From the IMG/VR virus record IMGVR_UViG_3300020557_000003: DNA of 15,862 bases; one strand, 5' to 3'. Source of the DNA: a virus. A program made the position numbers and the translations under genes. This document shows, in pieces, positions 1 through 15,862 of the stretch. A model generated the notes under the pieces. It saw nothing but the letters and a program-made list of their open reading frames with translations, did no database searches and was not told where the DNA came from. The stretch's first letter is position 1, and the number at the start of each line of letters is the position of its first letter.

Positions 1-99
1 CTTCTCCTGTATAAGTATTTGCAATGTTTTGGTCTGTACCTGTGCCTGTTTTCAATCGGGCAGTAAAAGCATTTCCCGAAGCAGAAAAGTTTGCACCTG
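1..99. repeat. Left copy of an exact 99-bp terminal direct repeat (identical to 15764-15862). Most likely the overlap of a circular or concatemeric assembly.
   Basis: Bases 1-99 (cttctcctgtataagtatttgcaatg...gtttgcacctg) reappear base for base at 15764-15862. The repeat lies inside an open reading frame. Confidence 0.9.
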
Positions 100-766
100 C
101 TCTAGCGTAAAAAGACATTGTTACTGTTTTCCCAGCATAAGGAATACTGTTTACAGTTTCCTGTGAGTATTCCAAAATCAATAATGGAGTGGCTGTCTGT
201 CCTGCGGTTCTTTGTATCCGCATACAGTATTGGATATTCGGCAGATTGGTTGTATCGGATGTGAGTTGTCTGCTAAAAGTGTTTGTCACTGTGCTAGAAA
301 CACGACACATCCACCTGTCGGCAGAATAATTACCTAGTGATGTAGTCGCAGCAAGACTAGTAGTACGCTGCCACACCTGCATTGCTGAGTTGATAATAGG
401 ATTGGAAATTGGAGTACCTGCCGTATAGCGCAAGCCTGTTGAAGTGGAACTATCTGCTACGAGTGTCTCGCCGTTGTTGCCTACTGCTAGGCGGGCCGGT
501 GTGTCGTTCGCTGTAGCTGAAATCAGATCGCCTTTAGCATCCACGATACTATTTTGGATCGCATTAGCATCATCCGTAGTAACCCAAGTAAAATCCATAT
601 CTGTACCGGAGGTTTTACTAAGTACCTGCCCGGTAGTGCCGCCCTTAAGATCGACTAACGAACCATCGATAGAGTCTCCAAGTGCCTCAATAGCCGTAGC
701 TCCATCTTTGACTAAGTCAGTCGATGTAGGTACAGGCCAGTTAAAATTAGGGGTAACTGTTGCCAT
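1..766 (-). CDS. Tail fibre / receptor-binding protein, N-terminal part (about 255 codons). The gene runs off the window start and continues at 15862 down to 15204, giving 441 aa on the circular map.
   Basis: ATG at 766-764 overlaps the upstream TAA (TAATG) and follows a GGAGG Shine-Dalgarno. My translation is MATVTPNFNWPVPTSTDLVKDGATAIEALGDSIDGSLVDLKGGTTGQVLSKTSGTDMDFTWV..., with no stop down to base 1. The frame joins the 15204-15818 ORF exactly (766 + 560 nt = 442 codons). The WPxP...D...I..L..ID N-terminus and a later NPIINSAMQVWQR...ADRW motif are typical of phage tail fibres. The gene follows the tape measure and minor tail genes. Confidence 0.8.
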   Translation of the reverse strand, partial: MATVTPNFNWPVPTSTDLVKDGATAIEALGDSIDGSLVDLKGGTTGQVLSKTSGTDMDFTWVTTDDANAIQNSIVDAKGDLISATANDTPARLAVGNNGETLVADSSTSTGLRYTAGTPISNPIINSAMQVWQRTTSLAATTSLGNYSADRWMCRVSSTVTNTFSRQLTSDTTNLPNIQYCMRIQRTAGQTATPLLILEYSQETVNSIPYAGKTVTMSFYARAGANFSASGNAFTARLKTGTGTDQNIANTYTGE

Positions 767-2013
767 TATGTCAAACCTCCAAATGCGTTTTCCCACTCAA
801 GTGTAGCGTTTACACCTGTCCAAATCAGGCTAGGCGGGCTTACTGTGTCCCATTGTGGCGCGACCAATGAGAAATCTGTAGGGCTTAAGGTAAGCGTTAT
901 GTCTACGAATTGAGGCGTAGCTCTAATAGCAAAGCCCTCTAAAAAGCCGTTAAAAGATCCGTTAAACATATTGATAGGTAAATCGCTAATAACGATAGGC
1001 TCACCAAAAAATACATTTATCAGCTTGTTTCGCTCAGCATCCGGTAAGTCTGAGTTATCTAGTCTGAAAGTAATGGCCTGCAGCTGCTCTCGTGGGATAG
1101 CCCGGAGCCCTAGCTCGCGATCCATTACATCGTTTACATCGCTTAAGTTATGCAGGTTAGAGCTTACGCTGCGCTGATAGCGGCCATAGTTAGCGATCGA
1201 GTCAGCATCTAAAGCAGTTGCCTGATTATTGTAATTATTACCATAGTTAAATACGAGCGAGTTACGGATCTTGCCTATCTGTAAAATTGACTTAACGCTT
1301 GACGGGATAGCGTAATTAGCCGAAATAGTCGTATAGCCGTTAGCCGATAAGTAAGCCGTACGATGATCGGCATCGGCGTAACAGACTCGCCCAGCCTTGT
1401 CCTCATACATATTACCGAGCGCGCTTTGTGCGATCTGCGCGCATAGGTTATAGCTACTAAACGGATCAGCTGAGCGAGAAATCATTTCGTAGAGGCCCGG
1501 CTGGTCGATCTCGCCAAGGCCCACGTTTTCAGCGTTAGCCCACGTAGTCGTAGGGTCGTAGTCCTGCCATTGTAAAGCCGGTGCTACCTCAAACCAGCTA
1601 TTAATAAGTAGCTCGTTAAGGATGTCGAAAATCTGATTGCCATCCTCAGTTTTAGGCAAAGCATCCGGGAACAGGGCTTTAGTCAATTTAGCCAAGGATC
1701 CTACGGCTAAAATATTACCGATTGTTATAAAGCCTACTTCCTCAGGCGAGCGTACCGAAATACCAAAATCGGATACCGTACCGCCAAAAACAGGCACGTA
1801 AGTACCAGAGCTATTCTTTAGCTCTAGGGTAAGGCTATCGGTAACGTCAATATCAAAGGCCGAGTTATTTATATTTACGATCTCCATACGAGCATAGCCC
1901 GCGTTACATTGTAGGTCGACGTCATCGCGACCAGTTGCCATATTTACGCTTAGCACGTTTGTATACTCAGTCGTGCCTACGATTATTTTCCACTCTGGGA
2001 GCCAAGTACTCAC
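766..2013 (-). CDS. Minor tail protein (distal-tail or baseplate-like), 415 aa.
   Basis: Listed ORF. Its GTG start overlaps the tape-measure stop (GTGA). It sits immediately downstream of the tape measure, where siphoviruses place the Dit/Tal genes. I read no diagnostic motif. Confidence 0.55.
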   Translation of the reverse strand: MSTWLPEWKIIVGTTEYTNVLSVNMATGRDDVDLQCNAGYARMEIVNINNSAFDIDVTDSLTLELKNSSGTYVPVFGGTVSDFGISVRSPEEVGFITIGNILAVGSLAKLTKALFPDALPKTEDGNQIFDILNELLINSWFEVAPALQWQDYDPTTTWANAENVGLGEIDQPGLYEMISRSADPFSSYNLCAQIAQSALGNMYEDKAGRVCYADADHRTAYLSANGYTTISANYAIPSSVKSILQIGKIRNSLVFNYGNNYNNQATALDADSIANYGRYQRSVSSNLHNLSDVNDVMDRELGLRAIPREQLQAITFRLDNSDLPDAERNKLINVFFGEPIVISDLPINMFNGSFNGFLEGFAIRATPQFVDITLTLSPTDFSLVAPQWDTVSPPSLIWTGVNATLEWENAFGGLT

Positions 2014-4537: not shown

Positions 4538-4703
4538 TTTTAACCTCCTCGGCTTGCTCGTTTAATACCTTTACTAACATCTTAAACATCTCTGTATCGA
4601 GATCGAGTATCGCCTGAGGCGCGACCTGTAACCGTATAGATAGCTGTGCTACTAAGTAGGTTAAAGAGCCGCGCCCTAGGCTAAAGGTTCGTCGTCTAGT
4701 ACC
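4512..4703 (-). other. Open -1 frame (64 codons) spanning the end of the chaperone gene and the 138-bp gap. Candidate G/GT-type frameshift extension.
   Basis: Relative to the 85-aa ORF, the -1 frame is closed by TGA at 4704-4706. It then stays open to TAA at 4512-4514, covering a gap that otherwise has no gene. No canonical XXXYYYZ slippery heptamer is present in 4679-4703. Confidence 0.3.
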
Positions 4704-4933
4704 TCAACCCTAGCCAAGGTATCTAAAAACTCTGCCCCAAACATCGGTACAGTTACTCCGGATGCCTTGAGGCACTCCCAAGCTAACCAATACACGTCGC
4801 TTTGCTTCTCGTCATCTCTAAAGGCTTTGTGAAAACCTTTTTTTGCGTAGATCTCAAAGGCGTACTCAATACGCGGCGTGATTTGATGTTCGCTAACCTC
4901 GCCTGTAGCCCTTGTTATTTTGAGTCGTGCCAT
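4676..4933 (-). CDS. Tail assembly chaperone (gpG-like), 85 aa.
   Basis: Listed ORF. Small acidic protein directly downstream of the tail tube gene and upstream of the tape measure region. AAGGGG Shine-Dalgarno. Confidence 0.6.
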   Translation of the reverse strand: MARLKITRATGEVSEHQITPRIEYAFEIYAKKGFHKAFRDDEKQSDVYWLAWECLKASGVTVPMFGAEFLDTLARVEVLDDEPLA

Positions 4934-4957
4934 TTGTTTAGCCCCTTTTCTTTGTTA

Positions 4958-5365
4958 TCAGCTAGTAGTAATTACGATTGGTGAGTTACAAGTAAATGTA
5001 ATGCTCTGTGTGCCGATATCTCCAACAGCGCCGTTAATATCTGTAGTGTTATTTACTAAAATAGTTGTGCTGTATAGAGGGTTAGTAGCTGAGACGATTG
5101 CGCTTGTCTGCTTTAGCGTGATAGGTACAGTTGTACCCCAAGCCGCCTGCAAAGTAGCGTTTACGTTAGCTGCTGCTGTATCGCTCAAAAAGTCTAGTGA
5201 GATCGTAGAAGTCTCCAAACCTTTTGTAAATTTTCTGCTGGAGTCCCCCATAGCTGTCACTTCGAGTTCCTCAAAAACGCGGTTAATTGTCGCGCTCGTT
5301 ACGTGATCACTCAGAGCTATAGAGTTCAGAGTTACGACCACGCCATTAGATAGAAATACGGCCAT
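4958..5365 (-). CDS. Major tail (tube) protein, 135 aa.
   Basis: Listed ORF. The ...LEVTAMGDSSRKFTKGLETSTISLDF... segment matches the dvT..gd....f..gl.d.s.s pattern of small siphovirus tail tube proteins. Ser/Thr-rich and beta-like. GAGGAA Shine-Dalgarno. Lies between the neck genes and the chaperone. Confidence 0.65.
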   Translation of the reverse strand: MAVFLSNGVVVTLNSIALSDHVTSATINRVFEELEVTAMGDSSRKFTKGLETSTISLDFLSDTAAANVNATLQAAWGTTVPITLKQTSAIVSATNPLYSTTILVNNTTDINGAVGDIGTQSITFTCNSPIVITTS

Positions 5366-5368
5366 CGC

Positions 5369-5482
5369 CTATTCCTCGCTTTTCTCTGTAGTAGGTGTTT
5401 GTGTTTTTGTTTCTTTTTTTGGTGCTTCGGTTATCTGCCCTATCTTAATTAGAAAGGCAATATCCTCATCTGTATATGGCAT
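5369..5482 (-). CDS. Possible 37-aa ORF (MPYTDEDIAFLIKIGQITEAPKKETKTQTPTTEKSEE), not in the ORF track.
   Basis: ATG at 5482-5480, one base after the upstream TAA. TAG at 5369-5371. It fills an otherwise empty 118-bp gap. There is no homology argument. Confidence 0.3.
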   Translation of the reverse strand: MPYTDEDIAFLIKIGQITEAPKKETKTQTPTTEKSEE

Positions 5483-5483
5483 T

Positions 5484-5876
5484 TTAGCTCCAGCTCGTTA
5501 GTATGCTTATGTCTATAGATGCTGTTAGCAACGTACCGCTCTGTACGTCTAAAGTACTCGGCGCGCTAACAGCTCCAATATTCATTACGATCGATGAGGC
5601 TGCAAGTTTGTTAAACACAGCTACGACCATATTTTCGATGCCCTGTAAATTTCCCTGATTATCCAGTAGCGGCACACTCATCTGGATCCGAAAATTAGCC
5701 ATAGGCGAAATTGAGTTATATGTGTTATTGCTGGGAGTGATGTAAGGATCTCCCGGAGCGACGATAACACTATTGGCCGTAATTGTTGGCGGTGGAAAGC
5801 TGTAAGTATTCCAAACGTTTGCATTAGCTAGAGCTGTAGCAAGTGAGGCGCGTAAAGTCGTAATAGGTACAGGCAT
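5484..5876 (-). CDS. Neck protein (tail terminator / head-tail joining type), 130 aa.
   Basis: Listed ORF. Its start abuts the adaptor stop (TAAATG). It lies between the adaptor and the tail tube. The call rests on position and size only. Confidence 0.45.
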   Translation of the reverse strand: MPVPITTLRASLATALANANVWNTYSFPPPTITANSVIVAPGDPYITPSNNTYNSISPMANFRIQMSVPLLDNQGNLQGIENMVVAVFNKLAASSIVMNIGAVSAPSTLDVQSGTLLTASIDISILTSWS

Positions 5877-6527
5877 TTAGCCCACCATAGAATTCGGATT
5901 TTGATACCCGGCGATGAGCCCTCGGATCTTGCCGATCATCGCGTTACCTAAACGATAGGGGCTCGGGCTAAAGCCGTCGATCGATACTCCACCTGTTTGT
6001 GAGACTTGGCGAGCCTGCCAGATATCTACGGCCAAAATCATCGCGGCTTCACGTACGGCCGGAGTAGTCGCGTAGCTGTTTGTCTTTGTGTCTGCGCCTA
6101 CGGCTTGGCCATAAGGTAATACGCGCTGAAAATTGACGTTAGCGGCGGTCTTAGCAAACTGGATAAAGCTATAACCGTTAGGCCAATTAAAGTAAGTGTT
6201 ATTCCACACGATAGACGGTAGCTGCGAGGATGTACCAGCTGACCAAGGGATCGTACCCGTGATCGTGTAAGTACCGTTAAAGGTTGAGCCGCATCCACTC
6301 AAGGTTACAGACTGACCCGTAGTAAAGATCATAGGGTTAGCAACCATCGCGGTAATTACATTATTTTGTAGTGTTACTCCGACTACTGGAGCTGAGGCAA
6401 ACCATAAAAACTGATTAAGTAAATCTTGAGCAGTTTGGCAAACTTCCTCGACGATGGCAGAGCTGTATAAGTTTTCGATACCAAGGTTAGCGCGTAACTC
6501 CGCCTCGGTGACGTATGTAGCTGGCAC
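5877..6527 (-). CDS. Head-tail adaptor (gp6-like connector) with an internal inserted domain, 216 aa.
   Basis: Listed ORF. The N-terminus YVTEAELRANLGIENLYSSAIVEEVCQTAQDLLNQFL and C-terminal REAAMILAVDIWQARQ resemble the two conserved ends of gp6-like head-tail connectors. It is the first gene after the capsid gene. Confidence 0.6.
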   Translation of the reverse strand: MPATYVTEAELRANLGIENLYSSAIVEEVCQTAQDLLNQFLWFASAPVVGVTLQNNVITAMVANPMIFTTGQSVTLSGCGSTFNGTYTITGTIPWSAGTSSQLPSIVWNNTYFNWPNGYSFIQFAKTAANVNFQRVLPYGQAVGADTKTNSYATTPAVREAAMILAVDIWQARQVSQTGGVSIDGFSPSPYRLGNAMIGKIRGLIAGYQNPNSMVG

Positions 6528-6544
6528 TTATTTACTCCCATCTT

Positions 6545-6585
6545 AAAAGAGGCCGGTAGGGCTCAAAGGGCTAAGAGCCCTACCG
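6545..6585 (-). terminator. Rho-independent terminator candidate downstream of the capsid gene.
   Basis: An 11-bp perfect stem (6554-6564 cggtagggctc pairs with 6575-6585 gagccctaccg) with a 10-nt loop. On the transcribed strand it is followed by GCCTCTTTTAAGA. It sits in the 75-bp gap between the capsid stop (6603) and the adaptor start (6527). Confidence 0.6.
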
Positions 6586-6602
6586 ACTATTAGGTATTTT
6601 GC

Positions 6603-8234
6603 TTATGCCTTTAGGTAACGAACGATACCGTTAGGCATTTTTGCGATAGTTGCCATAAAGCCGTAAATCGCTACCTGTACTTGTAGGTTCGATACTACGT
6701 TTACTGACATATAAGCCTGTGGGCTACGGTAAACAGTAAATGCCTCAGGGGCCAAAATTAACGCTGATGAGTCGTCTACTGTGGTTTCTGTGAAGTTCTT
6801 GTCTACGTATAGATCAAGGCCTAGTACGTTACCGCGAATAGACTGAGGGCCTACCTGTCCCGCCGCGTTCATCGGTTGGATGGCATTGTAAATTGGTCTC
6901 TTTGTGGTATCTGTTGCGCCCATTAGTAGTTGCCATTGTGCGGCATTTCCTACGTAGTTCTGCGCGAAGTAACCTGTGTTTTTGTAGATTGCTGCTGCAG
7001 CTTGTGAAGTAAAGGCAATAACTCCATCGCTATCAGCTGTTGTAGGTGTTGAGCCTGTACTAGCTGTCAATAGAGCATTTACTACAGCTGTATCAATAGT
7101 AGTTAAATACGCGTTCTGCAACTGCTGTGTGAGCTCGGCATAGAAATTCGGATCTGACCTCTCAAGCAACTCAATACTAATTGTGCCCATACCTGAGTAC
7201 TTCTGAACAGTTCCAGTAAGGTACGCGCTCTGCATATCTGTATTCGATACTGCGCCGTTTTCTGCCTCTACTGTAACAGTAGGTGCTACGCCTGTACCGC
7301 CGCCCGCAGCTGTAACAAGTGATGGAACGTTAATTGTCATACCCTGTGCTGGCAAAACTCCCTGTGAACAAGCATCGATCGCAGGTGTACCAAAACGAGT
7401 ATTAGTTACAAACTCTTGTAAGTACTGTGTTGGATTAAATGCAGGATTTCCAGCAAAATCATCCGCGGCAGTTACGTAAAGCTTTGACTCATCGCTACCT
7501 AGTGCAGCTTTGATCTTATGCTCTGTGTAAGTTGCCATAGATACGATTGGTGTACGTAGTCTTTGAGAGTCAAGGACTGACGGACGAATAATCTTACGAG
7601 CAGCTTCGACTTTTTCAGCCTCGGCCGGTGCATCTACCGGGGTTTCCTCCGGTGTATTTTCTGGGGCTGTAGTCACAGCTTCCTCGCTTTCGGTTTCTGT
7701 TTCGGTTTCGATCTCTACGATAGTCGTAGAAATAGTAGTTGTTTTTTCTTTTGTACTTGTTGCAGCTTCGATAGCAGCTCTCGCCGCCATAATTTCATCG
7801 ACGGATGCGCTAGAAAATGCGGCGCTCTCGACGAGCGACACTTCCTTGAGGACGGCAGCCGTGACAAGCAAGTAATCACCCATCGGCTTCGAGGCGGTTA
7901 CATCCACCCCAACGGATAGGCCGGATACGAGATTTTCTTGCGCTAATACGAGTGCATCTTGTCCTCGAGTGCTACTCGAAAGCTTAAACGATCCGTATAC
8001 GCCTTCGGTAGAGTCGCTAAAACTAATAGCGCGACCTACTGGCTTGTCCTGTTGATGCTGCGATAGTAATTTAATTTTTCCTGCATCTGGAATAGCAATA
8101 CTGCCGCGCTCGAACATTACACGGCCTGCGCTTGTGTGACCGATCTCGCCATATGGTGCAACGAGTCCGGATACGATGCGGCGCTCTGTATCTGCGGCTT
8201 GGATCTCTTGACTAAACGTTAGTAGCACTTGCAT
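6603..8234 (-). CDS. Prohead protease / major capsid protein fusion (HK97-like), 543 aa.
   Basis: Listed ORF. Residues about 1-150 carry prohead-protease (S78/U35-type) patterns: ...ERRIVSGLVAPYG..., QHQQDKPVGR and LVSGLSVGVD. Residues about 158-212 form a Thr/Glu/Pro-rich linker (IETETETESEEAVTTAPENTPEETPVDAPAEAE). The remainder is the length and composition of an HK97-fold capsid protein (...VEAENGAVSNTDMQSAYLTGTVQKYSGMGTISIELLERSD...). Confidence 0.8.
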   Translation of the reverse strand: MQVLLTFSQEIQAADTERRIVSGLVAPYGEIGHTSAGRVMFERGSIAIPDAGKIKLLSQHQQDKPVGRAISFSDSTEGVYGSFKLSSSTRGQDALVLAQENLVSGLSVGVDVTASKPMGDYLLVTAAVLKEVSLVESAAFSSASVDEIMAARAAIEAATSTKEKTTTISTTIVEIETETETESEEAVTTAPENTPEETPVDAPAEAEKVEAARKIIRPSVLDSQRLRTPIVSMATYTEHKIKAALGSDESKLYVTAADDFAGNPAFNPTQYLQEFVTNTRFGTPAIDACSQGVLPAQGMTINVPSLVTAAGGGTGVAPTVTVEAENGAVSNTDMQSAYLTGTVQKYSGMGTISIELLERSDPNFYAELTQQLQNAYLTTIDTAVVNALLTASTGSTPTTADSDGVIAFTSQAAAAIYKNTGYFAQNYVGNAAQWQLLMGATDTTKRPIYNAIQPMNAAGQVGPQSIRGNVLGLDLYVDKNFTETTVDDSSALILAPEAFTVYRSPQAYMSVNVVSNLQVQVAIYGFMATIAKMPNGIVRYLKA

Positions 8235-9372
8235 CTCCCAGCGGTGTTAGTTGCTCCATAGAGCGAGCTTGCTCTACTGAAATTAAATCTAGGTTTAACA
8301 TTTTCTCGATAATATCTAAACGATCTTTAGCATCGACTCGTAAAAAGGTATCGTCTACCGCAAAGCGCACTTGGTTTTGGCTATTAGTTATGTCGTTCAT
8401 TGATAGACGATCCTCGATTGCAGAGATGTAAGGCTGCAAAGAATAAGCGACAAACTCTTTACGTCCGTCTAATATATTTTGATACGTCATTGAGTTATTC
8501 ATATCGGCAGAAATGTAATATGCCGGGACGTTCATAGCGCGAGCAATTTCAGTTGCTAAATATTGTGATGCCTCGTTATACATCATATCGCGAGGACTAA
8601 AGCCAATATTTTCCGCGGTCAAAGTCGAGGTTAAATATGCCGTACTGCGATTTTTTCTTGCAGAATTCCATCCAGCTAGTAAACCTTGGATCTGTGTCTC
8701 AGGTAAATCAGCACCATTATTTTTTAGGATAGTAGTAGCCATTGGCGTAGCAGCGCTAACAGATGCAGCTCTTTGTATATCCCAAGCAGCCTTAATAGTC
8801 GTACCTGCGGTTTGTAATACTCCAGGAATTAACGATTGGAAAGTAACAAGCGATCCGATACCGCCCATAGGTACGAGCTGACCATCTACAAAATAATCTT
8901 TAACCTCTGTGCCGTATTGATTAGTCGTAAAGGTAACGCGATTATTAGCGACCCACTCAAAGCCGGACGGTCTGCCATCATCGGCGTACAAAGATGTAAC
9001 GCGCCAATATGCAACCGAGTAAAAAATTAAACTATCTACTGTTGCCGCGATCGTAACGCTTCGAGGTTGGCGCTGGTCGGGTTGCTCTAACCAAACTGGA
9101 GATCCTAATTTTTCGCCTGTAGATTTTTTATATAATGCTAAATCGATCGATGAGATAACTCCGGCTACTAGGTTTCTACAGCGGCTAACGCTCGCGACCT
9201 GTAAAGCAAAATTACGATCGATACCAATACCGTTATAACCAAAAGCGCTATTAGTATTAAAAGATCCGTAACCGTAAGTAGTATCCATTACCGCCGGGGC
9301 ATACTGAGCCTCTACCGTCTGCTTTTCAGCTGACTTAAAACCAAGCGTTTGTAATAGTCCCATAGTCTCCAT
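8212..9372 (-). CDS. Portal protein (HK97-family type), 386 aa.
   Basis: Listed ORF. Size and position between the large terminase and the protease/capsid gene. Overall sequence character fits HK97-type portals. Confidence 0.8.
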   Translation of the reverse strand: METMGLLQTLGFKSAEKQTVEAQYAPAVMDTTYGYGSFNTNSAFGYNGIGIDRNFALQVASVSRCRNLVAGVISSIDLALYKKSTGEKLGSPVWLEQPDQRQPRSVTIAATVDSLIFYSVAYWRVTSLYADDGRPSGFEWVANNRVTFTTNQYGTEVKDYFVDGQLVPMGGIGSLVTFQSLIPGVLQTAGTTIKAAWDIQRAASVSAATPMATTILKNNGADLPETQIQGLLAGWNSARKNRSTAYLTSTLTAENIGFSPRDMMYNEASQYLATEIARAMNVPAYYISADMNNSMTYQNILDGRKEFVAYSLQPYISAIEDRLSMNDITNSQNQVRFAVDDTFLRVDAKDRLDIIEKMLNLDLISVEQARSMEQLTPLGDASATNV

Positions 9373-9415
9373 TTTCCCATAATGTCAAGCATAAATACGG
9401 CTATCTGCCGCGTGT

Positions 9416-10831
9416 CTAAACGTAAACTTTAGCCTCGCCCATTGGTTGGTTAAGGATGTGTACGACCATTGATAAACCGATCGCTATATCTACAGGCCCG
9501 GCCGATTTACGACGGACGATACGCCAGCTATCCGGAGACTCTTTAGCTGCACAATTCGCCATATGAGTAACGAGTGCATCTTGGCCCGAGTGTACGAGTC
9601 TTTTATTAGCTAGAGCTTCGTATAGATCGCCGGAGGCCTGATAACCTTTTTGGCCGGAGATATCTACAATCTGTATGCCGTTTACCTCGAGGCGTTTGGC
9701 TATTGAGGCCGTCGTGTACTTGTCGTAAGCAACTTGCCGCGGATAATAAACCTTGGCCCACTTAGCAATAGCGTTAGCTACGAATAACTCATCGATGGAT
9801 ACGTCCGAGTGGAAAGTCTCAAGGACTGCTACACCGATACGACCATCGGCAAGGACTTGTCCCATAACGAGCGAACCGTCTCTACGACTCGGGCTAACAT
9901 CAAAAGCAAAGATAGTTAAAGGCCCGGGTGCTAGCTTGAGATCCTTATCGCCTGCATCCTCAACGGACATATGAGGCCAAGGTGAGGCAGTACTAGATAT
10001 CCATTGGCAAAGCATCTCGGTTTTTGTAGTTTCGATGGGTTGAGTACTGACCGCTTCGGCTAATACGTCCTCGTCGAACAGGTAGCCAAGGGCCGGGTTC
10101 GAGTAGGCCCAGCCGTCGCGATCATCGATCTTACAAAAGGCCGGAGCGCTGTATTCGTAAAAGCCAAACGTCTTAGGCGGGTTAGATAAGGCGCGCTCGC
10201 GTAGGTCATTAAGTACCGTGCTAAAGGCATCTCCGGCGTTTGACGTGTACAGGGCTTGACTATTGACCTTTGCACGAGTCGTAGGCGTAGCTGCGCGATA
10301 ACCTTCTTCCGAGATTTCGCGTAGCTCGTCGATGTATAAAAATGAGGCTGTACGGCCACGGCTACCATCTCTCGTAGCTGCAACTACGTCGAGCCTATGT
10401 CCGTTTTTTAACTCGATCGACTCCGTACCATTGGCGTATCGGATCTGTTTAACTTGCCTGCTCAGCTCGGCCGAGCCCTCGATGGCGTAGGCCACTTGCC
10501 TAAAGGTGTCTAAGGCCATCGATCTATTAGAGGACATAATAAGCACGTTAGGGCTATCGAATAAAAACATATGCCCCAGCATCATCATACGCGCGAGGTG
10601 AGTCTTGCCCTGTTGCCTCGACGTAAGGACGAGATTACTACGCCTGATAAACATATTATTTTCATCTACCGAGGTCATATCTCTAATTACAAAATCTTGC
10701 CACGGTAAAAGCGGTAGCCCAATACTTTCGGCCAGCTGAGAGATCTCATCGCCGCGATTTTTGCCTTTGAGGTAGGGACTATGTAGGCGAGGCTCAGTAG
10801 CCCCCTTACGGGGAGTTTTAGGCTGGGTCAT
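9416..10831 (-). CDS. terL: Terminase large subunit, 471 aa.
   Basis: Listed ORF. Walker-A-like SRQQGKT, Walker-B-like FLYIDEL, and a C-terminal nuclease-like IFAFDVS segment. Lies upstream of the portal and downstream of the HNH gene. Confidence 0.85.
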   Translation of the reverse strand: MTQPKTPRKGATEPRLHSPYLKGKNRGDEISQLAESIGLPLLPWQDFVIRDMTSVDENNMFIRRSNLVLTSRQQGKTHLARMMMLGHMFLFDSPNVLIMSSNRSMALDTFRQVAYAIEGSAELSRQVKQIRYANGTESIELKNGHRLDVVAATRDGSRGRTASFLYIDELREISEEGYRAATPTTRAKVNSQALYTSNAGDAFSTVLNDLRERALSNPPKTFGFYEYSAPAFCKIDDRDGWAYSNPALGYLFDEDVLAEAVSTQPIETTKTEMLCQWISSTASPWPHMSVEDAGDKDLKLAPGPLTIFAFDVSPSRRDGSLVMGQVLADGRIGVAVLETFHSDVSIDELFVANAIAKWAKVYYPRQVAYDKYTTASIAKRLEVNGIQIVDISGQKGYQASGDLYEALANKRLVHSGQDALVTHMANCAAKESPDSWRIVRRKSAGPVDIAIGLSMVVHILNQPMGEAKVYV

Positions 10832-10838
10832 ATAATTA

Positions 10839-11171
10839 TCAATTCTGATCCGGTTGGCCTACACACGGCCCGGCAAGGACTGTACTGGTCGTTTTTGGGG
10901 AGGAATTGCCTTGAAAGGCAGGGGGGGTAGAATTGGATGCTAAAAAAACAGCCTGTGAGCGTGAACCTTTCGAGCTATTGCATCGTCTACACGCTGCGAC
11001 ACAGTTATCCATATCCATAGGATCGCCTCCGGCTTTGATGCTACGCACGTGATCTACCGTACTGGCATCCTGCCCACAATAGGCACACGTGTATCCATCT
11101 CTAGCTAACACGGCTAAGCGTATGCGCTTCCAGTCTCTCGTAACACGTGGGTCGTGTCTACCCTTGACCAT
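10839..11171 (-). CDS. HNH endonuclease (packaging-associated type), 110 aa.
   Basis: Listed ORF with CAYCG...DHV...GG...DN...CRRCNSSKG, i.e. two CxxC pairs plus His and Asn of the beta-beta-alpha-Me motif. Immediately upstream of terL. Confidence 0.85.
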   Translation of the reverse strand: MVKGRHDPRVTRDWKRIRLAVLARDGYTCAYCGQDASTVDHVRSIKAGGDPMDMDNCVAACRRCNSSKGSRSQAVFLASNSTPPAFQGNSSPKTTSTVLAGPCVGQPDQN

Positions 11172-11654
11172 TTAGTAATGACCAGTCTTTAGATGATGAG
11201 CATAAGCTCGACAAGGTGTCTTATATCTATGTTCGATGTACTTAAGTCCTAAGTCTATCTGCTTAAATGGATCTAACTCTTTTAGCTTAAGTAGTTGAGG
11301 TATGCCATATGCTGAGGACTTAGGGTTATCTGCACGTGGATCCCATCTACTTTCTCTATTCCAGAGTAGCTCTAGGCATCTATATTGCTTTGCATTGAGT
11401 AGCTTCATATGAGCGTATAACTTATAGTTTTCTTTATCTCTTTGTGTACTTACCGCCTGAGCTGTAGGCATATTGGTAAATAGCAATAGCCCGGCCAAAA
11501 GCACCAGACTGCGCCTGCGAGCTATCCGCCTCAGCGGCTCGCCTGCGAGTATGGAGCGTAGCGATAAAGTCAAATACCTGTCAATTCTGAGCGTGGCTTT
11601 GAGCGTGTCCCACAGGTTATTAACCCCTGTGTATAACTTCTGTGGATAACTCAT
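11172..11654 (-). CDS. Exported or membrane-anchored transglycosylase-like (SLT / Apf C-terminal-like) peptidoglycan hydrolase, 160 aa from the ATG at 11654.
   Basis: The track ORF runs to a TTG at 11666, but the ATG at 11654-11652 forms an ATGA overlap with the methylase stop. CLELLWNRESRWDPRADNPKSSAYGIPQ ... LGLKYIEHRYKTPCRAYAHHLKTGHY matches the LW.RES.W...A.N..S.AYGIPQ ... RYG.PC.AW.....G.Y family common in Gram-positive bacteria. RRIARRRSLVLLAGLLLFTNMPTAQA looks like a signal or anchor segment. Confidence 0.7.
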   Translation of the reverse strand: MSYPQKLYTGVNNLWDTLKATLRIDRYLTLSLRSILAGEPLRRIARRRSLVLLAGLLLFTNMPTAQAVSTQRDKENYKLYAHMKLLNAKQYRCLELLWNRESRWDPRADNPKSSAYGIPQLLKLKELDPFKQIDLGLKYIEHRYKTPCRAYAHHLKTGHY

Positions 11655-12385
11655 AGCATAATCCAAGGTACACGTTTATTAGCTATATTACAGTAATTAG
11701 AGCTTAATTCGCTTCCTATGTAATGACGTTTGTTTAATATGGCCATTTTTGCCGTAGTACCGCTGCCCATAAACGGATCATAAACAAGCTCGCCCTCATC
11801 GCTCCAAGTTAATATATGGTCTTGAGCTAATTCCTCAGGATACGGCGCTGGATGGCCAGTACTATTTAATGAAGTCACATAAGTCCAGATATTAGCTCGT
11901 GGGCCGAATTCTTTTACAGGGCTTGAGTTTTTGCCTGACCAATCCATATGACCAGCCCATTTATTAGCCTTATCACATATCAGATTAGCTTTTGGTTTTC
12001 CTTTACTAAACACAAACATATACTCAAATATCTGTGTATATCGGTTTGAGTCCGGCCGAGCTGAGTATTTACTTGAGTTTTTTTGATAAATCATCGTGTC
12101 GTGCAAGTTAAAGCCAATACTCATAAAGTAAAGCGCTTGCTTAAAGCTCGTGCCAGTTTCCGACCCGTTTTTAGTCGCATCTCCGACTACCCATACAATT
12201 ACGCCTGTTTCTTTGATAACCCTATAAAGTTCATCCGCTATCGGCTCAAAATCAAAGCTATAACCTTCATAATCGCGTAAGTCATCATATGGTGGCGATG
12301 TAACTACTAAATCAATTACTCCATCATCCATTTTACGCATTGTGTCGAGGCAATTTTCATTATAAATAGTATCTTTATTAAGCAT
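11651..12385 (-). CDS. DNA methyltransferase, beta-class amino-MTase (N4-cytosine or N6-adenine), 244 aa.
   Basis: Listed ORF. Motif IV TSPPY lies near the N-terminus and motif I DPFMGSGTT near the C-terminus. This is the beta-class order of the N-4/N-6 DNA methylase family. Confidence 0.85.
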   Translation of the reverse strand: MLNKDTIYNENCLDTMRKMDDGVIDLVVTSPPYDDLRDYEGYSFDFEPIADELYRVIKETGVIVWVVGDATKNGSETGTSFKQALYFMSIGFNLHDTMIYQKNSSKYSARPDSNRYTQIFEYMFVFSKGKPKANLICDKANKWAGHMDWSGKNSSPVKEFGPRANIWTYVTSLNSTGHPAPYPEELAQDHILTWSDEGELVYDPFMGSGTTAKMAILNKRHYIGSELSSNYCNIANKRVPWIML

Positions 12386-12536: not shown

Positions 12537-12690
12537 CGGCATCGGCTGACTCCATCAAACACACGCCCATAACCCCGCATTTAGTGCATTGGAGCGTTTT
12601 AACGTTAGGCGGCAGGTTATCGGTAATGATGCGTTCGATTTGCTCTGTTACCTTTTTACATTTACGGCACTCGTATTTATATGTAGTCAT
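12529..12690 (-). CDS. Zinc-ribbon protein, 53 aa (MTTYKYECRKCKKVTEQIERIITDNLPPNVKTLQCTKCGVMGVCLMESADADV), not in the ORF track.
   Basis: ATG at 12690-12688 in a TAATG overlap with the upstream ORF, and TGA at 12531-12529. YKYECRKC ... CTKC gives two CxxC pairs, with an FmdB-like N-terminus. Confidence 0.6.
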   Translation of the reverse strand: MTTYKYECRKCKKVTEQIERIITDNLPPNVKTLQCTKCGVMGVCLMESADADV

Positions 12691-12875
12691 TAGGCCCTAC
12701 AGTCTGCACAAAGCCACATTACGACCTCGCCTGATACATCTTGTACGTTAAAGCCGTTTAGTGCTGTCTGCCATTTTTTGCATTGGTCGCAGTACTGAGC
12801 AGCTACTACGGTTATGTTCCCGTCGTCGTGGATCGTCGTAGCGTATCCGTCCTTAATAAAGGTTAATTCTCCCAT
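12690..12875 (-). CDS. Small Cys-rich (CxxC...CxxC) protein, 61 aa.
   Basis: Listed ORF with CDQC ... CADC. TAATG overlaps at both ends. Confidence 0.6.
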   Translation of the reverse strand: MGELTFIKDGYATTIHDDGNITVVAAQYCDQCKKWQTALNGFNVQDVSGEVVMWLCADCRA

Positions 12876-13252
12876 TACAGTTTTACCGCCTTATCTATAT
12901 GTAACAGCGCTATCTCTTTATCTACTGGAGCAGTCTTATTAAAGGTGCTGGCAGGTAAGCGCCGGGTAGTCCATTTAATAGTTATTTTGCGTAGGTTAAA
13001 CGCGTATATGCCTTGAGGCGTTTCATTAATATAAAACGGCGTATAGCCCAGGCTGTTAGCTTGTTGCATTAGTGAGTCGTACTTATCTTTTTCTAGTAGC
13101 AGCTCGTCATAATGCGTATGTCTGCACTTGAGCTCTACTACCATCCGATAGCCGTCGCTTGTCGCATCGATGTACTCGAAAGCATCGTTAGATCGCTCTA
13201 AGTCCTCTACGTAGGTCGCTTTGATGTACTTAAACAGATCGTCCTCGGTCAT
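12875..13252 (-). CDS. Protein with a PD-(D/E)xK nuclease-like motif, 125 aa. Possibly a resolvase or endonuclease.
   Basis: Listed ORF. FEYIDATSDGYRMVVELKCR gives D29...E40-x-K42, the classical PD-(D/E)xK spacing. ATGA overlap with the upstream gene. Confidence 0.4.
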   Translation of the reverse strand: MTEDDLFKYIKATYVEDLERSNDAFEYIDATSDGYRMVVELKCRHTHYDELLLEKDKYDSLMQQANSLGYTPFYINETPQGIYAFNLRKITIKWTTRRLPASTFNKTAPVDKEIALLHIDKAVKL

Positions 13253-13854
13253 ACCTGAGGCTCATACTTTCCTGTGCTACGTAATACATACCATCGAGGC
13301 GTACATTGGGTAGCTTTAGTTCGCTCGGTGCAGAAATACCCAGCCCAGTTCTTAGGCGATCCGGTTGCCGATTGCTTCCAAATCATCGTGCCGTGAGAAC
13401 AGCGTGGGGCCTCAGCTACTAACTCGCCGCCTAGTTGCGTACTGATATCTGCTACAGCTGTAGCCATAGTAGGAATATCCTCTATAGCTGCTCGATTACT
13501 CCACGGATCCGGATCGGCTGGCAAGTTCTCTACCTTTTGCATATCCTGAACAGTAGGCCGAGCGTGTTCGCTAGGTGTTAATAGGCCTATCACACGGCCG
13601 TAAGCGCTCGTTACCGTATCCTCTATCAGCCATTTTTTCATATTGTTAGTTAGGTGTGCCACATTACCAAACGCATAATCTACGGCGCTTGGAAGTGCAT
13701 CCTCGTACTCACGATAAGCCTCAGCTTTAACCAAAACCGTACCTTTGATAACGTCTATATCCTCGATGTAGGCTATTAAACGCCCGGTCGGAAATTCTGA
13801 TCTAAAGCGCTTGATACGAGCGTTTACATCCTCGTAGTTATCTAGGAACCCCAT
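13249..13854 (-). CDS. Hypothetical early protein, 201 aa, with a C-terminal Cys/His cluster. Possibly DNA-binding.
   Basis: Listed ORF. The N-terminal NYEDVNARIKRFRSEFPTGRL ... EDTVTSAYGRVIGLL reminds me of a conserved but poorly characterised phage early-protein family. The C-terminus CSHG...FC...C could bind zinc. The function is not established. Confidence 0.45.
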   Translation of the reverse strand: MGFLDNYEDVNARIKRFRSEFPTGRLIAYIEDIDVIKGTVLVKAEAYREYEDALPSAVDYAFGNVAHLTNNMKKWLIEDTVTSAYGRVIGLLTPSEHARPTVQDMQKVENLPADPDPWSNRAAIEDIPTMATAVADISTQLGGELVAEAPRCSHGTMIWKQSATGSPKNWAGYFCTERTKATQCTPRWYVLRSTGKYEPQV

Positions 13855-14012
13855 TAGATTAGCTCTTTTTCTTTAAGAGCTTGAGCAATAGCGCGGCCAC
13901 GTACAAAGCCCTCGCCGTGTCCGTGCTTAAAGCCGATCGAGTATCCGATTACCATAAACATAAAGCCCATACCGCAGGCTGCTAAACCGATTAAAATGTC
14001 CATACTGTTCAT
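13854..14012 (-). CDS. Small single-pass membrane peptide, 52 aa (MNSMDILIGLAACGMGFMFMVIGYSIGFKHGHGEGFVRGRAIAQALKEKELI), not in the ORF track.
   Basis: ATG at 14012-14010. TAA at 13856-13854 overlaps the next start (TAATG). One clear hydrophobic helix. It is the first ORF after the promoter candidate. Confidence 0.5.
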   Translation of the reverse strand: MNSMDILIGLAACGMGFMFMVIGYSIGFKHGHGEGFVRGRAIAQALKEKELI

Positions 14013-14071
14013 TGTTCGCCCTTTGTTAAGGCCGAGCAGCTACCAAACCGAGTAGCCCTCCCGGCGTTTGT

Positions 14072-14100
14072 AGTATCAGTATGAGGCTACCTACTGACAA
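14072..14100 (-). promoter_or_regulatory. Sigma70-like promoter candidate on the minus strand: TTGTCA, 17-nt spacer, GATACT.
   Basis: The -35 is at 14100-14095 (TTGTCA, 5/6 match to TTGACA). The spacer is 17 nt. The -10 is at 14077-14072 (GATACT, 4/6 match to TATAAT). It lies in the only sizeable gap with no candidate ORF (14013-14107), upstream of the early genes. Confidence 0.35.
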
Positions 14101-14107
14101 AAGGCAA

Positions 14108-14344
14108 TTATTTAGCTAGGCGTGTCTCTAACAAAATCTCGTATATCTTGTCGATTTTATTATCCATACGCTCGACTCGTGACTCCATATGATCGATACG
14201 GCCTCGTAGGTTATGGCCTCCGTTACCGTCCGGCCTTAGCTCTGATAGGTAGTACTTAACTAAATGACGGACGAGCCCAGCCCCTAACCCCAAAATGGTA
14301 CAGCTCCCCACAGCTATACCGATTATGAGCTGAGCCCCTTCCAT
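14108..14344 (-). CDS. Lysis-cassette membrane protein with an N-terminal transmembrane helix and C-terminal coiled coil, 78 aa.
   Basis: Listed ORF. LIIGIAVGSCTILGLGAGLV is a transmembrane helix, followed by NGGHNLRGRIDHMESRVERMDNKIDKIYEIL. TAATG overlap with the holin-like gene. It resembles small membrane proteins found after lysins in actinophage lysis cassettes. Confidence 0.45.
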   Translation of the reverse strand: MEGAQLIIGIAVGSCTILGLGAGLVRHLVKYYLSELRPDGNGGHNLRGRIDHMESRVERMDNKIDKIYEILLETRLAK

Positions 14345-14529
14345 TACTTCTTTACCCCAAACTGACCTTCGGACGGTTGGAGTGCCTTAAGTAGTGGCCC
14401 GATTAGCCCAGCGATAAACGCGTTAGCCAATACTTTCGGATCGGTGATCCCTGACATATACAGCGCTGCCGCACTTGCCAAGGCTGCACGGCCGTAAGAT
14501 TTAGCCGCTGCGATTGCTTGCTCTTTCAT
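14344..14529 (-). CDS. Holin-like small membrane protein, 61 aa.
   Basis: Listed ORF immediately downstream of the endolysin. It has two moderately hydrophobic segments (AALASAAALYMSG and LANAFIAGLIGPLLKAL) and a charged C-terminus. GGAG Shine-Dalgarno. Confidence 0.45.
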   Translation of the reverse strand: MKEQAIAAAKSYGRAALASAAALYMSGITDPKVLANAFIAGLIGPLLKALQPSEGQFGVKK

Positions 14530-14561
14530 TGTCTAGCTCCATTACTGCCCTTAGGGTTTGT

Positions 14562-15020
14562 TTACTGTAAACCTAAACTCGAGATTAACGCTTTAGCCTT
14601 AGCAGCTGATATTTCTACCTCAAAGTGCATATCGTCCGGCCTGCTCTTAAAGTCGCCGCCCCACTTAAGGCCGTACTTTTTAGCGAGTGCCCGGATCATT
14701 GGTACTTTTTCAGCCGGGAAAGTGTCGTATTTTCCTAGTGGATGCTTTGTCGCATTTAGATCGATGGCCGTCCCGGATGAGTGGCACGATAATTTTGTAG
14801 GGTTGCCTCTTACCATCCTGTACGCATATGCCCAGTCGTCAAACGTACCCTCATCGATCGGCTCAATCAGCTCGTGAAACTCCGCAGCAAAGGCGGCCAA
14901 AAGAGGCCCAACACTTTCGGCACACCTTAGCTTACGATCCGTACCTTTTACGAGGTAGGACTTTATCTTAATTGCTTCCGGATCTTTAGATGCCGGGTAG
15001 CCGTTATAGCTAGTCTCCAT
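14562..15020 (-). CDS. Endolysin, peptidase M15 (VanY / L-Ala-D-Glu peptidase-like zinc metallopeptidase), 152 aa.
   Basis: Listed ORF. SCHSSGTAIDLN (H-x6-D) and DDMHFE (D-x-x-H) are the zinc ligand motifs of the M15 family. WGGDF lies between them. Confidence 0.8.
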   Translation of the reverse strand: METSYNGYPASKDPEAIKIKSYLVKGTDRKLRCAESVGPLLAAFAAEFHELIEPIDEGTFDDWAYAYRMVRGNPTKLSCHSSGTAIDLNATKHPLGKYDTFPAEKVPMIRALAKKYGLKWGGDFKSRPDDMHFEVEISAAKAKALISSLGLQ

Positions 15021-15195
15021 TAGTAACGCTCGGTGTGGATTGTTCCGCTTCAGGGTTTTCTAGCCAGAGCAAGTATGCCTGATAGTCAGAGTTTGCCTCA
15101 TCCATCGGAATAGATAAGACTTGACCATCGCCAAGGTCAGCCCAAATAGTGGATGGTTTACCTTCAACTTCAACAATTTTATAGTGCATCGTCAT
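15010..15195 (-). CDS. Hypothetical 61-aa protein between the tail fibre and the endolysin.
   Basis: Listed ORF preceded by AGGAGA. Acidic. ...IPMDEANSDYQAYLLWLENPE... recurs in small phage proteins next to fibre genes. Function unknown. Confidence 0.5.
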   Translation of the reverse strand: MTMHYKIVEVEGKPSTIWADLGDGQVLSIPMDEANSDYQAYLLWLENPEAEQSTPSVTNGD

Positions 15196-15203
15196 TGTAT
15201 CTC

Positions 15204-15862
15204 CTATAATTCCGCTTGAAACGCTAAAAATGATGAAGCATTATTAGTGTTTATGAAAGCACCGTGACCAGCAGTTCCACTTGCCTCTGTACCATTGTAA
15301 ATATTTGCTGCTGTATTTGTTGCGTAAGCAAGAGTAAATGAATTAAATGTATCATTTCCACTATTTCTGTAAGCAATATAATAATCTGTACCAGTTACTT
15401 GTGAAAGAGTGGGTGCAGTTCTCATACTTACTGGGAAGTTAATTACTCCATCTACTTCATTTGACGCGTAATAAGTTGCCATACAGATTGCTTTGGCTGA
15501 ACCCGAAGCAGCAAGGTAGTAGTAACGCTGACAAGCGGCTAATTCTCCTTGGAGTGTTGCTGCGTAAGTGCGGAAAGGTAATGCCACGCTTCCAATGTCA
15601 ATCTGAAAACCAGTTACTTCCATATAATCTGCTGCTCCAGCCGTACCAGTAGCAGTATAAAAACATTGCAAGCCCATCTCGGTTGCAGTTGCAGCGACTG
15701 TTCCTGTGTAACTAAATCGCTGCCAAGTTGTTGTTAATGTAGCCGAAGCGTCAATAGTTGTTGCTTCTCCTGTATAAGTATTTGCAATGTTTTGGTCTGT
15801 ACCTGTGCCTGTTTTCAATCGGGCAGTAAAAGCATTTCCCGAAGCAGAAAAGTTTGCACCTG
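15204..15862 (-). CDS. Tail fibre / receptor-binding protein, C-terminal part. Same gene as 1-766, continuing across the circular junction.
   Basis: The frame stays open upstream of the track's TTG start at 15818 to the window end. The sequence there is the 99-bp repeat, which is in frame with the 1-766 segment (...ARLKTGTGTDQNIANTYTGEATTIDASA...). Ser/Thr/Ala/Gly/Tyr-rich and beta-like, as expected for a distal receptor-binding domain. Confidence 0.8.
   Translation of the reverse strand, partial: GANFSASGNAFTARLKTGTGTDQNIANTYTGEATTIDASATLTTTWQRFSYTGTVAATATEMGLQCFYTATGTAGAADYMEVTGFQIDIGSVALPFRTYAATLQGELAACQRYYYLAASGSAKAICMATYYASNEVDGVINFPVSMRTAPTLSQVTGTDYYIAYRNSGNDTFNSFTLAYATNTAANIYNGTEASGTAGHGAFINTNNASSFLAFQAEL
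15764..15862. repeat. Right copy of the exact 99-bp terminal direct repeat (identical to 1-99).
   Basis: Direct comparison of the two window ends. Implied unit genome length is 15,763 bp. Confidence 0.9.

Follow-up and report, generated by a model that had tools for sequence, protein, structure and literature searches.

Small-genome actinophages without DNA-metabolism genes have already been described (Klyczek et al., PMC5513430, section 14), and cultured phages of this architecture form plaques on their own (PMC5513430). Clusters AN, AX, FE, CW, DM, EE and RRH1 share a fusion capsid gene and a compact architecture (Jacobs-Sera et al. 2020, PMC7302621), and in fresh water a genome-size peak at ~15 kb was reported with 155 "miniphages", which include actinophages (Kavagutti et al. 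2019, PMC6802176). Siphoviruses of 15 kb that lack replication genes are hence known both as cultured soil actinophages and from lake metagenomes, while neither their replication nor their DNA recognition has been explained so far. Here we analyse one such genome, the IMG/VR virus record IMGVR_UViG_3300020557_000003. The window, to which all coordinates refer, is the whole stretch of 15,862 nt. An earlier note on this DNA had regarded the absence of replication genes as striking; since the class had been described in the three studies above, it can no longer be called unusual.

Taken as a whole, the window is best explained as the genome of a complete, virulent, cos-packaging, long-tailed miniphage whose replication is run by the host, a reading to which we assign a probability of roughly 60%. 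The phage class is already known; new here are the cos ends, the fold likeness of the early protein g02, a conserved pair of DnaA boxes and a swappable methylase slot. It was the abundance of the lineage that let natural variation reveal the cos site with its 13-nt overhang, the DnaA-box pair and a conserved annealing-like gene.

A complete miniphage genome and its relatives

The two ends of the window share 99 nt at 100% identity with a spacing of 15,763 nt, which gives a circular unit of 15,763 bp and bears out the closure claimed in the earlier note. Two relatives, L020 and L035, close on themselves via overlaps of 123 and 127 nt, yielding units of 14,964 and 15,832 bp. The contig L157 (25,302 nt) is a head-to-tail concatemer with a period of 15,276 bp, and L162 (a contig of NCBI GCA_050655915.1, 30,461 nt) is a concatemer of two diverged genome copies ~15.5 kb apart; L162 sits in an NCBI assembly bin and thus risks being misread as a 30-kb element. 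All relative contigs longer than one unit were concatemers. From the closure, the self-closing relatives and the concatemer periods it follows that the window is not part of a larger genome, as the earlier note had allowed it might be: it is a complete genome of 15,763 bp. The proposal that it is a fragment or mis-assembly of a larger phage with replication genes elsewhere can practically be dismissed, given closure in three assemblies, tandem repeats at 15.3-15.5 kb and no longer relative except concatemers; no point in its favour was found.

The genome has a guanine-cytosine (GC) content of ~46% and a coding density of 97.3% of the unit. We annotated 25 open reading frames (ORFs) and a probable frameshift product, all on the minus strand; the single-strand layout seen before thus stands, and the previous count of ~29 ORFs falls to 25. 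ORFs were called on the doubled unit, where one of 451 aa crosses the junction (796 to 1, then 15763 to 15204). Gaps above 50 nt occur only at 4538-4675, 6528-6602 and 14013-14107. A tRNA scan of the window found none, an Rfam search returned no family, eight plus-strand ORFs had no Pfam match, and tandem repeats or iterons were absent from the genome except for the DnaA-box repeat discussed below.

The proteins of all 25 ORFs were scanned with Pfam, PHROGs and NCBIfam. These profile searches agree with the previous head, tail, lysis, methylase, HNH and zinc-ribbon calls. They also agree with the earlier note's list of missing functions: among ORFs on either strand, no family match was obtained for a polymerase, primase, helicase, Rep/initiator, single-stranded DNA-binding protein (SSB), integrase, repressor/Cro, ParAB or small terminase (TerS). 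Even in sensitive searches, no early ORF emerged as a known initiator, primase, TerS or integrase.

The large terminase (TerL) matches 1,328 phage records at ~30% identity, nearly all of them from actinophages. The capsid fusion matches 207 records from Microbacterium, Arthrobacter, Gordonia, Curtobacterium and Rhodococcus phages, together with single Pseudomonas and Parageobacillus records. The best capsid matches are in Curtobacterium phage Penoan (15.3 kb) and Arthrobacter cluster AN (15.3-15.6 kb), where the protein is annotated as "major capsid and protease fusion protein". Like cluster AN (Decurrovirus: Muttlie, Decurro and Maggie) and Penoan, the window combines a small genome, nearly all genes on one strand, a fused protease-capsid, the same portal/terminase order, an HNH gene placed last before the genome end, a peptidase-type lysin and a lack of DNA-metabolism genes. 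The map of Muttlie follows the same plan: the terminase lies near the left end, the portal, fusion capsid, tail and lysin genes come next, and a handful of small early genes precede HNH at the far end.

The relationship is nevertheless distant. Protein identity to cluster AN and Penoan is only 21-39%, over parts of TerL, portal and the protease domain, DNA similarity is absent, and the GC content of 46% contrasts with 60-68%. Cluster AN carries three small genes between the left end and the terminase, whereas the window has no gene between cos and TerL; cluster AN also encodes helix-turn-helix regulators, one of them on the opposite strand, whereas the early set of the window comprises g02, zinc ribbons, a methylase and an exported transglycosylase. 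A megablast search of the whole genome against 50,697 phage records gave no match. The window therefore does not belong to the genus Decurrovirus/cluster AN proper, as matches to Muttlie are confined to TerL, portal and a portion of the capsid fusion, at 21-37%. It does show the features of the wider class, namely a complete unit below 20 kb, protease and capsid in one gene, no DNA-metabolism families found, and HNH at the genome end beside the terminase. Microbacterium EE, Gordonia CW/DM and Rhodococcus RRH1 phages (14.3-17.5 kb) similarly combine a protease-scaffold-capsid fusion with a compact structural module, a lysis cassette, HNH and few regulators (PMC7302621); their sequence relatedness to the window is marginal, some of them (cluster CW) are temperate, and their hosts are high-GC soil actinobacteria. 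The miniphages of Kavagutti et al. 2019 (PMC6802176), likened here by size and type, are uncultured, ~13.5-15 kb long and in part predicted actinophages; that study did not analyse genome ends, the origin or the early genes.

At least 598 IMG/VR contigs encode the g12 capsid protein, and 80 fetched loci are 87-100% identical. Homologues of g02 number 2,127, and hundreds of near-identical free contigs measure 15-16 kb. The window thus represents an uncultured low-GC lineage that is very abundant in metagenomes and a distant member of the known small-genome actinophage class. With TerL and capsid relatives almost all from actinophages, the actinobacterial host considered in the earlier note is retained as a best guess on this indirect ground, neither a CRISPR-spacer nor a prophage link to a host having come up, and the GC content of 46% suggests a low-GC host lineage, e.g. 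freshwater acI.

The cos site and packaging

To locate the virion ends, the ends of fetched IMG/VR contigs were projected onto the window, and a second scan was seeded with the HNH protein. At minus-strand position 10913, ~30 contigs from no fewer than 25 samples begin. The HNH-protein scan gave ~27 contigs whose ends fall at 10927, each terminating in ...ATTCTAC. Neither end type contains the 13 nt in between (10914-10926), yet these are present and conserved in read-through contigs. The virion ends are thereby defined, with a cos site 82 nt before TerL within the tail of the HNH ORF. Because the 13 nt are lost from both ends, we infer that the overhangs are 3' and were trimmed in library end-repair.

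The HNH ORF extends ~28 codons past the cos cut and ends 7 nt before the TerL ATG (window 10839-10949), and the cut falls after the HNH catalytic domain (residues 29-71). Since cos lies inside this ORF, the virion genome starts with 82 nt followed by TerL and ends with a truncated HNH gene, which circularisation restores. An HNH gene adjoining TerL and fixed cohesive ends are what is expected of an HNH-TerL cos system.

HNH-assisted cos packaging of the HK97 type, reportedly described by Kala et al. in 2014, resembles the window in three respects: HNH lies beside terminase and cos, the ends are cohesive, and a prohead protease accompanies a capsid of the HK97 fold. In HK97 and related phages a small terminase, encoded between cos and TerL, is required as well. 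In contrast, the window has 82 non-gene nt there: the interval contains no ORF and leaves no room for TerS in its canonical place. Nor was TerS found anywhere else in the genome by Pfam, PHROGs or NCBIfam, the sole "TerS" PHROG match being the HNH domain itself (phrog_4581). The 82 nt are strongly conserved at the DNA level (e.g. CTCCCC...GGTAC.GTCC...GGCCAA) and may be a terminase recognition (cosB-like) region. DNA recognition for packaging is cos-based and HNH-associated. The earlier note had asked how the DNA is recognised; a defined cos site next to HNH and TerL now supplies the answer in concrete form.

The cos ends also bear on autonomy. A related locus or prophage copy was sought in 185,579 species-representative genomes (GTDB), and none was found beyond TerL matches at 28-31%. 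A temperate phage was rejected, since integrase, partition and repressor families were not found on either strand and prophage copies were not found; the absence of these genes and of genomic copies fits a virulent phage. A gene transfer agent (GTA) was likewise rejected, given that the 15-16 kb genomes occur free, in circular or linear form, with cos ends, and that no chromosomal copy was found. The broader proposal of a satellite, defective element or GTA-like cluster that needs a helper or a chromosomal location could draw on the missing replication and TerS genes. We consider it very unlikely, as the window has a full head, tail, fibre and lysis set and its own cos ends, which are the termini of genome-length linear contigs in many samples. 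Hundreds of free 15-16 kb contigs stand against no chromosomal copy in the GTDB set, and the cultured phages of the same architecture plaque alone (PMC5513430). The earlier description of an autonomous, complete, minimal long-tailed virus, and not a GTA cluster or fragment, is upheld.

Candidate replication signals and the early protein g02

The window contains only two exact TTATNCACA consensus DnaA boxes, 13 nt apart on the gene strand. Their count across the window alone is not significant, and the evidence lies in their conservation among relatives. In 71 distinct sequences, eight positions of box 2 are identical in 70-71 of the 71, and variation is confined to position 5, an N in the consensus (C 47, A 18, G 5, T 1). 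Box 1 follows the same pattern where present. The two boxes lie in different reading frames of g08. Inside them, synonymous sites stay fixed, whereas substitutions at the variable base alter the amino acid (P/T; Y/S/C/F), the reverse of what selection on the protein would produce. Across 1.37 Mb of family loci we counted 192 exact boxes, where simple arithmetic predicts ~42, and 140 of these form 13-nt tandem pairs. Every clade member examined, down to L157 with ~45% g08 identity, keeps at least two DnaA-box-like sites, although their arrangement varies: in some relatives a third box follows 52 nt downstream, or a near-box occurs in inverted orientation. One subgroup (L158-L161, L110, L111, L156 and L157) lacks box 1; its members carry, 13 nt downstream of box 2, a near-perfect box in inverted orientation that reads TCATCCACA on the opposite strand.

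By sequence, the pair is predicted to be a real binding site for host DnaA, and it is the best origin candidate in this initiator-less genome. That it serves as the replication origin is a tentative assignment, which we place somewhat below even odds; a regulatory or titration role is the main alternative. The order of box, GC cluster and TAATAA corresponds to the orientation of E. coli R1 beside the unwinding region. The boxes lie in a 45-residue N-terminal extension of g08 that precedes the membrane anchor (11520-11654); this extension may exist mainly to carry DNA signals.

A second conserved element precedes the early operon. The gap at 14013-14107 is the only sizeable true intergenic gap, and within it the -10 region (CATACTGATACT) of a promoter-like site and the 60 nt downstream are nearly invariant in 65 distinct relatives. 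Conservation in the leader of the early operon exceeds that of the coding DNA around it. The leader can form a hairpin with 13 consensus pairs, one of which covaries (CG 8, UG 8, UA 6), and its G-U pairs make the hairpin strand-specific; it had no Rfam match. By analogy, the hairpin might stabilise or regulate the RNA, or it might belong to an origin primed by transcription, as in Ceduovirus c2.

The origin of c2 works by transcription without phage proteins, and c2, like the phage proposed here, is a small lytic cos siphovirus with an origin that uses host proteins only (PMC7150918). The c2 origin is non-coding, transcription-dependent and located between divergent operons, whereas the candidate in the window is a DnaA-box pair within an ORF. 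c2 still encodes some replication-associated proteins.

The third element is g02, the best-conserved early protein, which occurs in every relative covering the region (35-83% identity). A search of 1.84 billion representatives yielded 514 relatives, and an alignment of 48 was used for an AlphaFold2 (AF2) model with a predicted local distance difference test (pLDDT) score of 88.7. The modelled core (H10-20, E25-34, E39-47, E57-64, H70-92) reaches pLDDT 95-98, and a C-terminal zinc ribbon has the invariant residues C152, (H154), C175 and C184. This finger is the only part of g02 matched by PF25690 (mycobacteriophage L5/D29 gp49; profile positions 149-187). A "ribonucleoside reductase" family, phrog_364, covers residues 148-189, and we take it to be the same finger. 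The finger also weakly matches the GRF finger of NEIL3 (PDB Foldseek prob 0.72, not significant). In precomputed annotations, the N-terminal domain type is the uncharacterised PF27148 "Slr1353_N".

When the model was compared with BFVD, 26 matches reached E <=1e-3. The closest are "uncultured Caudovirales phage" proteins; matches with a named function, a few of which fall just short of this threshold, include "Essential recombination function protein" (6.7e-10 and 1.3e-3), "DNA repair protein Rad52/59/22" (2e-4 and 1.6e-2), "ERF superfamily" (3e-3), "Single-strand annealing protein SAK3" (4.7e-3) and an Exodeoxyribonuclease 8 PDDEXK-like domain protein. Moreover, the g02 motif ...A-x-G-x-A-x-E...E-x-x-ETSAIGRAL...G is in register with SASAIAREE...GATSSYARKYCLNG of P22 Erf. 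Like Rad52/Erf/Sak3 proteins (P22 Erf, lactococcal Sak3, Sak), g02 has ~200 aa, a predicted alpha-beta-beta-beta-alpha core, this motif and an early-gene position; it differs in that a finger of the GRF/L5-gp49 type replaces the usual C-terminal tail, no SSB gene is adjacent and no profile match is significant. With moderate confidence we therefore propose, from the model, that g02 is a Rad52-superfamily annealing protein with a single-stranded DNA-binding zinc finger, which makes its former description as a "201-aa unknown" in a genome without recombination functions doubtful. In staphylococcal phages, Sak and Sak4 are required for replication and concatemers (PMC5499656).

A further homologue is encoded by L171, an ENA contig of 14,805 nt, at 10001-10564 (30% identity) in the same gene order and at 51% GC, so g02 marks a miniphage group broader than the clade of the window. 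Contigs carrying distant g02 homologues are mostly too short to show gene context.

The neighbouring g03 is at most an accessory nuclease partner, judged by its motif. Its D29...E40-x-K42 residues are invariant in 30 homologues, and two homologue clusters were named "Holliday junction resolvase" by the Joint Genome Institute (JGI). g03 had no family or fold match, its AF2 model (pLDDT 57.6) being too low for a meaningful fold search. The previous "nuclease-like" label thus holds for the motif and not for family or fold.

Several points weigh against host-run replication from the DnaA boxes with concatemers made by g02. A published basal unwinding module requires tandem boxes <=3 bp apart, a GC cluster and at least three DnaA-trios (Pelliciari et al. 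2021, PMC8287927); the window has a 4-bp gap, GGGG and only two trios (TAA TAA), and the downstream 60 nt, searched for an unwinding element, are not AT-rich. The boxes are absent from the distant relatives L131, L128 and L171 and from Muttlie and Penoan, and are therefore not a general solution for miniphages. The probable annealing function of g02 draws solely on likeness between predicted structures: a Foldseek search of the model against PDB gave nothing significant (human RAD52 prob 0.69, with dsRNA-binding (double-stranded RNA-binding) domains similar), hhalign of the g02 family against P22 Erf (single sequence and alignment) gave E 0.36-0.05, with a probability of 1% for the alignment (E 0.05), which is not significant, and the Pfam models ERF (PF04404) and Rad52_Rad22 did not match. 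g03 is dispensable in many relatives, being missing from L024, L031, L035, L098, L120 and L157. A divergent TerS or initiator may be present among the small uncharacterised proteins. Finally, we infer the lytic lifestyle, and host, freshwater origin and overhang polarity are deduced in the same way.

Other g02 searches were uninformative. hhalign against Sak3 gave nothing, phmmer/hmmsearch of g02 and g03 against PDB sequences gave chance-level matches except for the weak NEIL3 GRF finger, and tblastn of g02 against phages gave a single marginal match (E 0.01), located close to an SSB gene of Lactobacillus phage PMBT4, which is not strong enough to build on.

Two rivals arise from these points. 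The boxes may not be an origin at all but a regulatory or titration site, with replication starting elsewhere, either primed by the early transcript near the leader hairpin or through g02 recombination. The incomplete unwinding module, the absence of the boxes from distant relatives with the same gene set, the high conservation of promoter and hairpin and the c2 precedent (PMC7150918) all speak for this. Set against it are perfect consensus boxes conserved at the DNA level in ~70 variants and the lack of any other repeated or iteron-like element in the genome. Their orientation relative to a GC cluster and TAATAA, which is that of R1 in E. coli, points the same way. We hold this rival to be unlikely, but a serious contender. 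The second rival makes g02 a new origin-binding initiator or replisome organiser, so that the phage would encode its own initiator. Indeed, apart from g02 no sizeable early protein is conserved throughout the group, g02 has no sequence-profile link to ERF or Rad52, and its PDB search also gives dsRNA-binding folds at similarly weak scores. Yet its significant named BFVD matches are recombination proteins (ERF, Rad52/59/22, SAK3 and the PDDEXK exonuclease domain), it has no ATPase, winged-helix or Rep-type motif, and no iterons to bind were found; we regard an initiator role as improbable.

Under the preferred reading of a host-replicated, cos-packaging miniphage, the life cycle would run as follows. 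After entry, linear DNA would circularise by cos annealing, restoring the HNH ORF and its coupling to TerL. A single early promoter (14100-14072) would drive g01-g09. Replication would be carried out entirely by the host replisome, in this clade probably recruited via the tandem DnaA boxes at 11628-11649, and g02, with g03 in some members, would probably promote recombination-dependent concatemers. TerL and HNH would cut these at cos without a recognisable small terminase, and cell lysis would be brought about by the M15 peptidase together with exported g08 and small membrane proteins.

In its strongest form, this proposal describes a clade without a phage initiator in which host DnaA reads an oriC-like two-box origin, g02 with its Rad52 fold and GRF finger makes concatemers, and TerL and HNH package without TerS. 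That all these parts hold jointly is rather unlikely. If they did, this would be among the most host-dependent life cycles of lytic tailed phages, with a minimal siphovirus gene set of ~25 genes. Should the DnaA boxes be the origin, phage replication would be tied directly to host initiation, which is relevant to the ecology of slow-growing freshwater actinobacteria and would also help to define a minimal tailed-phage chassis.

Other genes and the methylase slot

Table 1. Annotated features of the window.
Feature	Coordinates	Strand	Evidence and remarks
Terminal overlap, copy 1	1..99	none	99-nt identity with 15764-15862; assembly signature of a circular or concatemeric template
g21 tail fibre, 5' part	1..796	-	451-aa ORF starting at 796; phrog_4492 2e-33
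g20 putative distal tail or baseplate protein, 415 aa	766..2013	-	assigned by position; no family match; 82-100% identity in relatives
g19 putative tape measure, 637 aa	2010..3923	-	assigned by size, position, Ala/Lys-rich helical sequence and synteny with Muttlie gene 13; no family match
g18, 204 aa	3923..4537	-	no family match (Pfam, PHROGs, NCBIfam); 32-100% identity in relatives
g17 putative tail assembly chaperone, 85 aa	4676-4933 (with 138-nt gap: 4538..4933)	-	assigned by position
g16 major tail protein	4958..5365	-	phrog_4574 2e-22
g13 (216 aa), g14 (130 aa), g15 (37 aa), putative head-tail joining	5369..6527	-	assigned by position and synteny with Muttlie genes 8-9
g12 prohead protease-(scaffold)-HK97 major capsid fusion, 543 aa	6603..8234	-	PF04586, PF25209, PF05065
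g11 portal	8212..9372	-	PF04860 1.5e-31; phrog_12 5e-42
g10 large terminase TerL	9416..10831	-	phrog_9 9e-59; Terminase_6N, TerL_ATPase, TerL_nuclease; first gene after cos
g09 HNH endonuclease	10839..11171	-	PF01844 2.6e-10, residues 29-71; ORF tail crosses cos up to TerL start
cos cohesive end, 13 nt, 5'-CCCCCCTGCCTTT-3' on gene strand	10914..10926	-	recurrent contig starts/ends; putative 3' overhang
g08 lysozyme-like (transglycosylase/Apf C-terminal-like), membrane-anchored or secreted	11172..11654	-	NF052397 69.4 bits; phrog_12661 4e-20
DnaA boxes TTATCCACA (11641-11649) and TTATACACA (11628-11636), then GGGG TTAATAAC	11628..11649	-	within 5' end of g08 ORF
g07 N6/N4 DNA methyltransferase	11651..12385	-	PF01555 2.7e-43; variable cassette slot
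g06 FmdB-family zinc ribbon, 54 aa	12378..12542	-	TIGR02605 40.4 bits, cut-off 31.3
g05 zinc ribbon, 53 aa	12529..12690	-	Zn_ribbon_8 2.5e-5; TIGR02605 2.5e-5, below cut-off
g04 zinc ribbon CxxC...CxxC, 61 aa	12690..12875	-	weak zinc-finger matches (Pfam)
g03 candidate PD-(D/E)XK nuclease, accessory, 125 aa	12875..13252	-	D29, E40, K42 motif
g02 best-conserved early protein, 201 aa	13249..13854	-	N-terminal alpha-beta-beta-beta-alpha domain; C-terminal CxH...C...C zinc finger (GRF/L5-gp49 type)
g01 small membrane peptide, 52 aa	13854..14012	-	hydrophobic segment in sequence; 48-100% identity in relatives; no family match
Leader hairpin of early operon	14031..14065	-	outer stem GCCGG/TCGGC, inner stem GGCTAC/GTAGCT
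Early promoter-like site TTGTCA-17-GATACT	14072..14100	-	scan; putative function; 95-nt gap 14013-14107 before g01
g24 (61 aa) and g25 (78 aa), small hydrophobic, holin-like	14108..14529	-	assigned by position; no named family
g23 M15 peptidase endolysin	14562..15020	-	PF13539 1.8e-14; phrog_1512 6e-20
g22, 61 aa, acidic, variable	15010..15195	-	no meaningful match; absent from most relatives
g21 tail fibre, 3' part	15204..15763	-	continuation of the same 451-aa ORF across the junction
Terminal overlap, copy 2	15764..15862	none	99-nt identity with 1-99

The remaining features are collected in Table 1. In the capsid fusion g12, Peptidase_S78 spans residues 12-147 and Phage_capsid residues 316-529, and phrog_2263 covers the protein at full length (1e-58, residues 8-539). 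The putative head-tail joining proteins g13-g15 are kept in relatives and have no family match in Pfam or PHROGs. The 138-nt gap 3' of g17 is open in the -1 frame, and the -1 ORF overlaps the end of g17 and spans the gap, probably as expected of the frameshift product of a tail assembly chaperone. No canonical slippery heptamer XXXYYYZ was found in the permitted stretch of the overlap (4538-4760). Downstream, g18 sits between the chaperone g17 and the tape measure g19.

For g08, the likely start is the ATG at 11654, with a TTG at 11666 as an alternative in the ORF listing; reading the sequence, a hydrophobic segment follows RRIARRRS. By analogy with cluster AN, which has two lysin genes, g08 may be a second, exported lysin.

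The methylase g07 had been counted among the core early genes, but the content of its slot varies among relatives, and all 21 long relatives lack g07. In L005 (4419-5045) the g06-g08 slot holds a 208-aa C5-type methylase (FCGAGG...PPCQ...ENV), with flanking DNA ~94% identical to the window. L020 and L031 carry other inserts of 160-600 bp, and in L035 the slot is empty (near 2258). The methylase is thus a moron, a swappable anti-restriction cassette. Its slot lies directly upstream of the DnaA boxes.

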